From IMG/VR virus record IMGVR_UViG_2778261167_000001: DNA of 15,416 nt; one strand, 5' to 3'. This document shows, one piece after another, positions 6,937-8,997 of this stretch (the stretch's first letter is position 1; the number at the start of each line of letters is the position of its first letter). Under the pieces are notes generated by a model. That model was given only the letters and a program-made list of their open reading frames with translations. It did not search any database and had not been told where the DNA came from. Made by a program: the position numbers and the translations under genes. The DNA comes from a virus (taxonomy: Duplodnaviria > Heunggongvirae > Uroviricota > Caudoviricetes).

Positions 6937-8997
6937 TTACGCCGTACATTTCACCAGACCGCGGTGATCAACTGGCGCGACACCAGCGTCAATACGCACT
7001 TTCGTTGTCACGCCATCCACACTGAAGCCCTCCATCTGATCAATATATGGCGTATCCACACCGTTGAGATAAGCCACTTCAATCGTATCGGAGCCTCTGG
7101 ACGCAGCCAGGTAGAAGGTGGTCTGGCTGTTATCATCAAGACGAGGCTCTGCAATAACGGTCGCAAAATCTTTCACCGGGTTAATAATACCGGCGTTAAT
7201 GTCAGCCCCCTTGACACTTGAGGAGCGAATGACCTGGTTAGCAACAGACTCCATCGCTGTCGGTACCAGTACGAACGCAGGACGAATATTCAGATGACGC
7301 TCCCCCTCTTTCTGAACGCGCATCAACTGGCGGGCTTTATCCAGTGATGCCACGTCCATTGCAGCGTTCTCCAGTACGTTTGCATGTTTCGTTTTATCGA
7401 ACAGGTTCACATTATCCGTGGAGATCTTCGGATTAGACGTCAGAATGGCATAAACCAGATCGGCAATCGTGGATTTTGCCGCACGCCCCAGTTTCATCGG
7501 AACATCGGTCAGCATATTCAGATCATCGTTGATAATGGCCTGACGGGTGATGCTGAACAGTTCACCATAAGTCGCCAGTGCAATCGTGGCCTGTTTATCT
7601 CCAGTGGTGACGTACTTATATTCCGCCCCTTCTCGCACCTGACGCAGAGAACTGAAGCCCCCCATCCCCACACGATGAGCAATTTTAAAATCAGACAGCT
7701 GACCTTTCCGGGTCCACTGTTCGTAAGTCTCAGGGGCTTCTTCCCATCCCTGCAGAATGGCTTTGTTCGCGACATCCAGCAGAATATTACCAAAATCAGA
7801 CGTACTGTGCGTGAACGCTGCCCCTACCATCTGCATCGGGTTATACCCGGAAACCCCAATCCCCCGTTCTGTCAGTGACATTCGGGCATATTCACGCAGG
7901 GTCATCCCGTTATAGACGTTATCCTGTTCACGCTCAGCAAATCCGGCACGCGCCATCAGCGCCTGACGGATCCCGTCCCCCACAAAATTACCGTTGCCGG
8001 CATAAATATGGGCCGGGGTATTTTTATTTGATGGTGAAAATTCCTTACCCATTTCGTTAAGTAATTTCTCACGGGCCTGCTCAAGCGAGCACTCCGGATC
8101 GGAAAGACAACTGGCCTGCAATGTCTGATAGCGCCCGCCAAACATACCAAACAGTTCATTAATACCACTCACACGTGCTTTTTGCTCTGCCAGTACCTGC
8201 GCACGGATACTGCTTTCATCTGCGGAAGGTGCATTTGCGGTAGTCGCGGTTGTGGCAACCGGAGCCGTAGTCTGATCCTGTGTCTGAGATGCAGTATTTT
8301 TGTTTTCAGGTTCACGCGTTGCACTGTTGCGTGGCGGAATAATCATATTTCGAATGGATTCCGGCATTTTTTTAAATTCCTCTGTACGTTTTGACTGAAT
8401 ACATGCCATTGCCTTAACTTCCGGTGTCACCTGGTCAGCAAATCCGTGTGCCAGACATTCGGCACCGGACATCCAGGTTTCATCCGCCAGCATGGCAGCA
8501 ATTTCATCGGTTGTTTTCCCGGTTTTCTGCGCATAAGCAGGCAACAGGACCGACTCAACTTTATCAAGCAGGTCGGCATAATCACGCATATCATCCGCAT
8601 CGCCACCACTCACTCCCCATGGTTTATGGATCATCATGAATGCGTTTTCCGGCATGATGACGGGATCCCCCACCATTGCAATGACCGATGCCATGGATGC
8701 CGCGACACCATCCACATAAACGGTGATGGACGCCCCATGATTTTTCAGCGCATTAAAAATGGCGATGCCTTCAAAGACATCGCCACCCGGTGAATTGATA
8801 TGGAGATTAATGTGGGTGATATTACCCAGCGCATTCAGATCGCTGACAAACTGCTTCGCCGTAACTCCCCAGAAACCAATCTCGTCATAGATATAAATAT
8901 CTGCGTCACTTTTATGACCCGCCTTCATTCTGAACCAGGAATTATTCTTCAGGCTGGCCTTCGGTTCGCCGCGAAACCACGCGTTCTGTTTCAGCAT
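6937..8997 (-). CDS. Fused ClpP-like prohead protease / scaffold-linker / HK97-fold major capsid protein (about 686 aa)
   Basis: N-terminal ~200 aa has ClpP-type motifs (...INSPGGDV...GVAASMASVIA...MIHKPWG). Then a Thr/Ala/Pro-rich linker and a helical segment, then a ~400-aa capsid-like domain. Start placed at ATG 8997 (AGGAGGTG RBS); the ORF-track extension to 9189 overlaps the portal gene. Confidence 0.85.
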   Translation of the reverse strand: MLKQNAWFRGEPKASLKNNSWFRMKAGHKSDADIYIYDEIGFWGVTAKQFVSDLNALGNITHINLHINSPGGDVFEGIAIFNALKNHGASITVYVDGVAASMASVIAMVGDPVIMPENAFMMIHKPWGVSGGDADDMRDYADLLDKVESVLLPAYAQKTGKTTDEIAAMLADETWMSGAECLAHGFADQVTPEVKAMACIQSKRTEEFKKMPESIRNMIIPPRNSATREPENKNTASQTQDQTTAPVATTATTANAPSADESSIRAQVLAEQKARVSGINELFGMFGGRYQTLQASCLSDPECSLEQAREKLLNEMGKEFSPSNKNTPAHIYAGNGNFVGDGIRQALMARAGFAEREQDNVYNGMTLREYARMSLTERGIGVSGYNPMQMVGAAFTHSTSDFGNILLDVANKAILQGWEEAPETYEQWTRKGQLSDFKIAHRVGMGGFSSLRQVREGAEYKYVTTGDKQATIALATYGELFSITRQAIINDDLNMLTDVPMKLGRAAKSTIADLVYAILTSNPKISTDNVNLFDKTKHANVLENAAMDVASLDKARQLMRVQKEGERHLNIRPAFVLVPTAMESVANQVIRSSSVKGADINAGIINPVKDFATVIAEPRLDDNSQTTFYLAASRGSDTIEVAYLNGVDTPYIDQMEGFSVDGVTTKVRIDAGVAPVDHRGLVKCTA

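Follow-up and report, generated by a model that had tools for sequence, protein, structure and literature searches.

The head gene analysed here lies in a 15,416-nt stretch of viral DNA (the window; Caudoviricetes, IMG/VR record IMGVR_UViG_2778261167_000001) and is, with a probability of about 93%, the tripartite head gene of a Gifsy-2-type lambdoid E. coli prophage, encoding protease, scaffold and major capsid protein as one polypeptide that would follow an autoproteolytic assembly pathway. This identification is based on an intact ORF, three distinct regions, conserved catalytic residues, an HK97 fold, and the homology and synteny with Gifsy-2. The fusion arrangement is already known and does not represent a novelty. 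The features of the region are listed in Table 1.

Table 1. Features of the fusion gene and its surroundings (positions refer to the window)
Feature	Position	Strand	Remarks
Portal gene, immediately upstream	8942..10447	-	Pfam Phage_portal_2 (lambda family), E 5e-82
Shine-Dalgarno sequence AGGAGG	9008..9003	-	5-nt spacer to ATG 8997; strong; within the 3' end of the portal gene
Protease-scaffold-major capsid protein fusion gene	6937..8997	-	Complete; 686 aa plus stop; 74.7-kDa precursor
ClpP-type (MEROPS S14) serine protease domain, residues 45-191	8425..8865	-	Pfam CLP_protease, E 1.7e-36
Predicted catalytic Ser101	8695-8697	-	Aligned to ClpP catalytic motif
Predicted catalytic His124	8626-8628	-	Aligned to ClpP catalytic motif
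Glu173	8479-8481	-	Occupies the ClpP catalytic Asp position; Asp172 adjacent
Thr/Ala/Ser/Pro-rich low-complexity linker, residues 225-259	8221..8325	-	Composition; most variable region of the protein
Helical central segment, residues 260-329	8011..8220	-	AlphaFold helices 261-284, 291-299, 305-315
Pre-capsid stretch, residues 330-393	7819..8010	-	Three short helices between helical segment and core capsid fold
HK97-fold major capsid domain, residues 394-686, about 32 kDa	6940..7818	-	Pfam, profile, AlphaFold, Foldseek
Terminator-like hairpin GGCCCGTAAGGGC with T7 run	6893..6913	-	24 nt past the fusion-gene stop
Second GC hairpin	about 6866-6884	-	After the terminator-like hairpin
Head-decoration (cement) protein gene, 107 aa	6527..6850	-	ATG 6850; PHROG 122 'head decoration', E 1.2e-44

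In the preliminary description, a single ORF of about 686 aa had been postulated, carrying a ClpP-type protease domain, a low-complexity Thr/Ala/Pro linker with a helical segment and a capsid domain, in a tripartite arrangement of the Gifsy-2 type that was regarded as probably not new. All of these points were confirmed by the results given below. The ORF is exactly 686 aa long and is located on the minus strand, which had not been stated. Reading the sequence from 8997 to 6937 revealed 686 codons without an internal stop or frameshift (stop codon at 6939..6937), so that the frame is not split by a missed frameshift or stop, the case that the preliminary description had considered. The chance that 686 random codons stay open was computed to be about 5e-15. 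The ORF listing started from an upstream TTG (6937..9189), but the true start is the ATG at 8997, and the 5' end of the gene overlaps the portal gene by 56 nt. Three antisense ORFs within the gene (7384..7878, 8446..8793 and 8800..9087, plus strand) had no PHROG match, and no Rfam families were found in 6200..9300. The sole promoter-like site in the region was rejected, being on the wrong strand and below chance expectation.

The whole protein scored 993.6 bits (cutoff 475) with the curated NCBIfam model NF045540 (scaf_prot_MCP1, ClpP-like prohead protease/major capsid protein fusion protein), residues 32-685 aligning end to end with positions 2-651 of 652, and PHROG 133 likewise matches it at full length. 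An E. coli protein at NCBI (P0003) is 100% identical and already bears the NF045540 name. DNA matches to the gene were found in 2071 of 5426 complete E. coli genomes, with a coverage of at least 80% in 1820 genomes, and the isolated E. coli phages cdtI, mEp460, phi458, Ayreon and Tritos carry it with about 91% nucleotide identity over 94% of the gene, which shows that the fusion is compatible with viable virions. No substantive difference between the gene and those of these phages and the NF045540 family was detected. The full-length architecture is also seen in most of the 150 representatives listed for clusters at 50% identity, which typically have 640-700 aa. As prophage genes often decay and databases hold aberrant read-throughs in this family, e.g., portal+fusion proteins of 1159 aa, the long ORF might be an artefact or pseudogene in which separate protease, scaffold and capsid genes were joined by a frameshift or sequencing error. 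Given the same architecture in isolated phages, in Gifsy-2, in the 1820 genomes and in most cluster representatives, a curated model covering the whole length, the strong RBS and the uninterrupted frame, this reading is effectively refuted. Being known for Gifsy-2, curated by name at NCBI and present in more than one third of the complete E. coli genomes, the gene is an ordinary one.

The protease domain reached 224 bits (cutoff 120) with the NCBIfam model NF045542 (Clp_rel_HeadMat), a domain model of equivalog type for head-maturation proteases, and its motifs AASMA, MIHKPWG and ADETWMS align with the catalytic motifs of solved ClpPs in alignments to PDB sequences. Ser101 and His124 are invariant in the alignment of close relatives, where they lie in the canonical motifs GxAASMA and MIHxPWG. 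Among 95 diverse relatives, Ser101 is found in 77 (column gapped in 11), His124 in 62 (gapped in 18) and Glu173 in 71 (gapped in 8). Judged from these scores and residues, the N-terminal part is a ClpP-related head-maturation protease domain with predicted catalytic Ser and His, as in NF045540. The NCBIfam SppA_dom match to the fusion protein is weak and sub-threshold (6.4e-5, 22.7 bits at a cutoff of 155); S14 and S49, the family of the lambda C protease, are both members of MEROPS clan SK.

The third triad residue is Glu173 and not the canonical Asp, with the acidic character of the position being conserved. This exchange, and the difficulty of squaring one tethered domain per subunit with the canonical ClpP heptamer rings, would fit a dead ClpP-like domain that serves as a bulky scaffold only, any cleavage being left to a host protease or another phage protease. 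However, Ser101 and His124 are retained as described, the NF045542 score is above its cutoff, and no second protease gene is present between the portal and the tail genes according to the PHROG and Pfam annotation of the neighbours, which makes a dead domain highly improbable. Activity of canonical ClpP requires its assembly into stacked heptamer rings. Since such rings cannot match the 5- or 6-fold symmetry of a capsomer, the tethered domains of an active protease may work in monomeric form or as non-canonical 5- or 6-mers beneath each capsomer. Such a new activation mode of the ClpP fold is possible but doubtful; if true, it would apply to the already known family as a whole and would not be specific to this window. 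With a geometry as in Gifsy-2, about 415 tethered protease copies would be present per T=7 procapsid.

Just after the protease domain, Pro212 and Pro221-Pro222 are nearly invariant in the 95 diverse relatives and might form a hinge or the first self-cleavage site. At codon 211, an ATG with a weak GAGG about 10 nt upstream could serve as an internal in-frame start that also yields a protease-less scaffold-capsid protein, resulting in sub-stoichiometric protease as for lambda C/Nu3. Met211 is invariant among close relatives, and protease-less scaffold-capsid homologues of 410-470 aa exist naturally among the cluster representatives. In the wider family, however, the column holds A, T, V or I, and the GAGG is accounted for by Glu-Glu codons. 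Due to this lack of conservation of the Met, a nested gene resembling lambda Nu3 was rejected as a family feature, and an additional internal start is considered unlikely.

The region downstream of the protease is rich in Thr, Ala and Ser (T9, A8 and S4 in the 38 residues 225-262), and the linker shows no consensus across close relatives. The full-length AlphaFold model, for which 16 close homologues with 74-97% identity to the window protein were used as input, had an overall pLDDT of 35.5 and was unusable as a whole; the three helices of the central segment lie in the stretch to which most of the confidently modelled residues belong (mean pLDDT of 58-84 per 10-residue block). No Pfam family was found for residues 260-329, and the segment is contained in both fusion-family NCBIfam models, including scaf_prot_MCP2, which matches from residue 226. 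By analogy, it is probably a scaffolding region resembling a delta domain.

For the C-terminal part, Pfam detected Phage_capsid_4 (E 3.3e-54, residues 394-683) and Mu-like_gpT (E 1.3e-8). The capsid part was searched alone against PDB sequences, since the full-length search (phmmer/profile) was flooded by cellular ClpP, and its profile matched the Mu major capsid protein (MCP; 9jod, 1.2e-10) and JBD30 gp38 (1.1e-9). The latter phage's MCP is described as having the canonical HK97 fold (PMC11445458). For residues 330-686, an AlphaFold model based on 22 diverse relatives reached a pLDDT of 83.2 and a pTM of 0.79. Foldseek found 363 PDB matches to this model at E<=1e-3, and each of the 50 listed among them is an HK97-fold capsid protein, an encapsulin or a related shell protein. 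HK97 Head II (2ft1; E 1.6e-8), the JBD30, D3 and T5 capsids and encapsulins were matched with a probability of 1.00. The domain is thus predicted to have the HK97 fold of a major capsid protein, as in NF045540, and the alternative raised in the preliminary description, a capsid domain lacking such a fold, was not borne out. The pre-capsid stretch contains the helices H338-350, H367-376 and H387-396 (pLDDT about 85-90 in the same model) and belongs either to the scaffold, as its end, or to the capsid protein, as its N-arm. By analogy, cleavage during maturation most likely takes place in or near this part. Residue 17 of the Mu MCP (9jod) aligns near residue 412, which places the Mu N-terminus at about residue 396 of the fusion protein.

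Effantin et al. in 2010 (Virology 402:355) are said to have described a tripartite capsid gene for Gifsy-2, whose protease and central domains are reportedly removed by proteolysis, resulting in a T=7 capsid with trimer decoration. The Gifsy-2 fusion CDS (NC_010393 22471..24561, YP_001700678.1) has the three-part layout in common with the gene described here and encodes 696 instead of 686 aa; the proteins are homologous over their full length (69% identity over 684 aa, E 0.0). The ClpP domains share 67% and the capsid domains 88% of their residues, whereas the first 44 residues are only 34% identical and the linker is unrelated in sequence (20% identity, length differing by 8 residues). Apart from the host, E. 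coli here and Salmonella for Gifsy-2, these are ordinary allelic differences. The Gifsy-2 gene order is kept (TerS, TerL, W-like, portal, fusion, decoration, connector, Z, U, V, G, T, H, M), with 14 of 14 genes from TerS to M being collinear at 43-70% identity, and the portal protein is 64% identical to that of Gifsy-2. The context thus comprises a lambda-family portal, the fusion, a small decoration protein, a PF13856 connector and lambda-like tail genes. In PMC12315714, the protease and coat genes of Gifsy-2 are referred to as fused.

Lambda uses the separate genes C, Nu3, D and E, which the preliminary description had contrasted with the one ORF. This holds for C, Nu3 and E, which are replaced by the fusion, but not for D, since a separate decoration gene remains. 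BLASTP against lambda yielded no match for the fusion protein (C, Nu3, E and D included), the W-like adaptor, the small terminase or the decoration protein, and no Pfam S49 or gpE-family match was obtained for the fusion protein, which does not belong to the lambda C/Nu3/E families (Peptidase_S49, gpE). The proposed difference in lineage between the head and the lambda-like tail was substantiated, as the identity to lambda is 50-56% for the tail proteins Z, U, V and M, but 20-24% for portal and large terminase (portal to gpB 20%). What the flanking head genes have in common with lambda is their order and their Pfam families (gpA terminase, lambda-family portal), not a close similarity in sequence. 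The fusion occupies a position equivalent to that in the lambda head operon (portal-protease-scaffold-capsid), with terminase and portal in Pfam families common to both. In lambda, too, protease and scaffold are joined (C contains Nu3) and a trimeric cement protein occurs, but the capsid gene is separate. The lambda-type GGGAAAG slip site is absent from the G/T-like gene junction.

HK97 gp5 also has an N-terminal scaffold (delta domain) fused to the HK97-fold shell protein and cut off by a phage protease, but this protease, gp4, is a separate, herpesvirus-assemblin-like gene product of family S78, whereas it is ClpP-like and fused here. The identity of the capsid domain to gp5 is about 13-14% in the structural alignment. 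The solved structures closest to the C-terminal domain by sequence, Mu gpT and JBD30 gp38 (9jod, 8rkc), are capsid proteins of about 305 aa that stand alone, protease and scaffold being encoded by genes of their own.

The decoration protein matches Pfam Phage_cement_2 (E 6.5e-19), not the gpD family, and is 62% identical to the Gifsy-2 CDS annotated STM1034; its gene lies 3' of the capsid gene, in contrast to lambda, where it is located 5'. According to its sequence, it is the likely partner of the capsid domain. HK97 has a covalent chainmail and no decoration protein. By analogy with lambda and Gifsy-2, the presence of a cement gene argues for cementing and not for an HK97-type chainmail. A trimeric cement protein at the 3-fold axes of Gifsy-2 is mentioned in PMC8538268, and JBD30 carries trimeric minor capsid proteins at these axes (PMC11445458).

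For the assembly, each capsid subunit would be made as a precursor with the protease at the N-terminus, followed by a flexible tether with scaffold-like helices and the C-terminal shell domain. The precursors would co-assemble on the portal into a procapsid, likely with the protease and scaffold parts pointing inward, and crowding within the shell may switch on the tethered proteases. These would trim off some 330-395 N-terminal residues, so that the mature shell protein would have about 32-39 kDa. After exit of the fragments, DNA packaging would expand the shell, which decoration protein trimers would then cement. The order of assembly, the scaffold role of the central segment, the cleavage position and a T=7 geometry are inferred by analogy from the literature on Gifsy-2, HK97 and lambda.

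The gene represents a head type that ranks among the most common ones of prophages in E. coli, Shigella and Salmonella, and the practical value of the family identification lies in annotation. Older records annotate the gene inconsistently ('Nu3', 'protease C', 'major head protein', 'Clp protease'), and in many deposited phage records the label 'Clp protease', 'Nu3', 'protease C' or 'portal' conceals its identity as a major capsid gene. A literature search for further accounts of such fusions yielded nothing useful. The family is a good system for studying the fixed 1:1:1 delivery of protease, scaffold and shell protein, and also how head and tail modules of different ancestry meet at the FII/Z boundary. 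Downstream of the fusion gene, the corresponding intergenic region of Gifsy-2 has an equal layout of the terminator-like hairpin.

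The 686-aa protein encoded at 6937..8997 (minus strand) combines in a single chain a ClpP-type protease domain, a flexible linker, a helical middle portion and a shell domain with the HK97 fold, and its gene is already known as the Gifsy-2-type tripartite capsid gene. It matches the NCBIfam model NF045540 (scaf_prot_MCP1, ClpP-like prohead protease/major capsid protein fusion protein) from end to end with 993.6 bits (curated cutoff 475), and the match to PHROG 133 likewise spans the whole protein. In the Salmonella phage Gifsy-2 (NC_010393), a 696-aa CDS at 22471..24561 is 69% identical over 684 residues; the regional values are 67% (protease), 47% (helical segment) and 88% (capsid domain). 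The gene order from the small terminase through gpM is that of Gifsy-2 for all 14 genes, with identities of 43-70%, and this bears out the Gifsy-2-type arrangement proposed in the preliminary description. For Gifsy-2 itself, passages in the literature describe fused protease and coat genes (PMC12315714) and a trimeric cement protein on the 3-fold axes (PMC8538268).

The gene had been judged probably not new, and it ranks with the most frequent head genes of E. coli prophages. A DNA match was found in 2071 of 5426 complete E. coli genomes, in 1820 of them over 80% or more of the gene length; the RefSeq name of the matches listed is that of NF045540. The NCBI protein P0003, already under this name, is 100% identical, and the gene is present at about 91% DNA identity in the isolated E. 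coli phages cdtI, mEp460, phi458, Ayreon and Tritos. Annotations across the phage records disagree ('head-tail preconnector protein Nu3', 'protease C', 'putative protease/scaffold', 'Major head protein', 'Clp protease'), so that the records often fail to identify this product as the major capsid protein.

Features of the fusion gene and its neighbourhood (residues refer to the 686-aa protein)
Feature	Position	Strand	Detail
Fusion gene start	ATG at 8997	minus	AGGAGG at 9008..9003, 5-nt spacer
CLP_protease	residues 45-191	minus	Pfam E 1.7e-36
Linker	residues 225-259	minus	Thr/Ala/Ser/Pro-rich
Phage_capsid_4	residues 394-683	minus	Pfam E 3.3e-54
Mu-like_gpT	residues 546-618	minus	Pfam, weaker match
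Terminator-like hairpin	6913..6893	minus	GGCCCGTAAGGGC plus T7
Second GC hairpin	within 6851..6936	minus	CAGCCCCGCTCAGGGGCTG
Decoration gene	6527..6850	minus	107 aa; downstream of fusion gene; PHROG 122 "head decoration", Pfam Phage_cement_2
PF13856 connector	6259..6534	minus	91 aa; head side of head/tail junction
Z-like gene	5669..6247	minus	tail side of head/tail junction
G-like gene	4070..4498	minus	tail chaperone gene pair
T-like gene	3732..4061	minus	tail chaperone gene pair

The ORF scan yielded an open frame at 6937..9189 (minus strand) if an upstream TTG is taken as the start, an extension that would overlap the portal gene (8942..10447, minus strand) towards its 3' end. Read from the ATG, the frame holds 686 open codons followed by TAA at 6939..6937, exactly as first described, and nothing points to an overlooked frameshift or stop. 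The computed chance probability of an open frame of this length is about 5e-15. A pseudo-fusion created by a frameshift is excluded, as the architecture is conserved in viable phages and in thousands of genomes. There is no support for nested initiation at Met211, as that residue is conserved only among close relatives. ORFs antisense to the gene had no PHROG match, and Rfam showed no family in 6200..9300.

At least ten database proteins of 1158/1159 aa from several sources (P0049, P0053-P0061) read from the portal straight into the fusion frame. Their junction, ...DKGGSSAQRNDRSRS..., replaces the normal portal end and the fusion start MPQRNDRSRS and corresponds to the short portal/fusion overlap at 8942..8997, the proteins themselves lying outside the window. 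They probably reflect a 1-nt indel in this overlap in a widespread, possibly defective prophage lineage.

The protease domain also matches NF045542 (ClpP-related head-maturation protease domain) with 224 bits (cutoff 120). Ser101 (GVAASMAS) and His124 (MMIHKPWG) align with the catalytic Ser and His of solved ClpP structures; the position of the catalytic Asp is taken by Glu173, which adjoins Asp172. All four residues are invariant in the alignment of close relatives, and among 95 diverse relatives the Ser is kept in 77, the His in 62 and the Glu in 71, with gaps at these columns in 11, 18 and 8 relatives, respectively. Conservation of the Ser and His motifs, and the finding of no other protease gene between portal and tail, make an inactive protease domain unlikely; judged from its sequence, the ClpP-type domain is probably active. 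Directly after it, amid variable neighbouring residues, stand Pro212 (87 of the 95 diverse relatives) and Pro221 (77 of 95); Pro212/Pro221-222 (about 8332..8364, minus strand) may form a hinge or processing site.

Conservation within the protein is lowest in the linker, which is 20% identical to its Gifsy-2 counterpart and differs from it in length by 8 residues. The full-length AlphaFold model, which otherwise failed, shows three helices at residues 261-315 (block-mean pLDDT 58-84) within the stretch where most of its confidently modelled residues are found. Owing to the linker composition and these helices, the original account of both segments is accurate.

In a PDB sequence search, the C-terminal part alone matches the capsid protein of JBD30 (E 3.4e-5), whose fold PMC11445458 describes as canonical HK97. 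Residues 330-686 were aligned with 22 relatives (39-60% identical) drawn from the exhaustive representative search, and the trimmed alignment gave a profile matching the phage Mu capsid protein (9jod, PMC11915804; E 1.2e-10) and JBD30 gp38 (8rkc/8rkx, PMC11445458; E 1.1e-9). The AlphaFold model from this alignment (pLDDT 83.2, pTM 0.79) had 363 Foldseek matches in the PDB at E ≤ 0.001, of which the best 50 are all HK97-fold capsid, encapsulin or related shell proteins; among the matches listed are HK97 Head II (2ft1, E 1.6e-8, probability 1.00), JBD30, D3 and T5. The HK97-like fold was thus recovered by profile, model and structure search. A long hairpin (about 430-484) and a 24-residue helix (498-521) appear in the model's secondary-structure string in the order expected for a putative E-loop and spine helix.

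Searched with residues 200-686, a library of representatives at 50% identity gave 10,578 matching clusters (E ≤ 0.001), the best 150 being mostly 640-700 aa long. The capsid domain was present in all 73 diverse members sampled, the ClpP domain in 49, an HK97-type Peptidase_S78 instead in two, and 12 members of 410-480 aa have no protease; the match to the NCBIfam sister model scaf_prot_MCP2 does not begin until residue 226. These varying N-termini indicate modular swapping: the protease has repeatedly been replaced or dropped while the scaffold-capsid part stayed the same.

The fusion gene directly follows the portal gene and precedes the cement protein gene. By homology to Gifsy-2 and analogy to HK97 and lambda, 74.7-kDa precursors would assemble on the portal, their protease and helical regions pointing inward. 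The tethered proteases would then remove roughly residues 1 to 330-395, the upper bound being set by residue 17 of Mu gpT, which aligns near residue 412. This would leave a shell protein of about 32-39 kDa (computed masses), to be expanded by packaging and cemented by decoration trimers. How a ClpP-fold protease works when tethered one per subunit inside a procapsid is a family-wide question, not specific to this window.

The head had been assigned to a different lineage from the lambda-like tail, and the comparison agrees: identity to lambda is 50% for Z, 53% for U, 55% for V and 56% for M (33% G, 38% T, 25% H), against 20% for the portal (E 2e-5) and 24% for the large terminase. The fusion protein, W-like adaptor, small terminase, decoration protein and 91-aa connector had no BLASTP match to lambda. 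Since terminase and portal still belong to the lambda gpA and lambda-portal families (Pfam), the head module is a distant cousin of lambda's that keeps the same gene order and is joined to a tail closely related to lambda's. Published remarks on Gifsy-2 likewise describe a head unlike lambda's and similar tails. The change is abrupt at about 6247..6259: connector, decoration and capsid proteins have no detectable similarity to lambda, whereas Z, U, V and M are about 50% identical; this connector/Z boundary marks the mosaic junction. As a correction to the first description, the fusion takes the place of the separate lambda genes C, Nu3 and E but not of D: a decoration gene is kept, its product being 62% identical to the Gifsy-2 counterpart. 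At the G/T-like junction (4061..4100, minus strand), where the G-like ORF ends ...CCGGAAAAGTCCTGA, the lambda slip heptamer GGGAAAG does not occur.

Fusion and decoration genes are separated by an 86-nt gap (6851..6936, minus strand) with two hairpins. The layout is alike in Gifsy-2 (NC_010393, 24562..24651), but the second stem differs in sequence. Possible effects of the hairpins are attenuated transcription or a more stable capsid mRNA, by which the ratio of capsid to decoration protein could be set.
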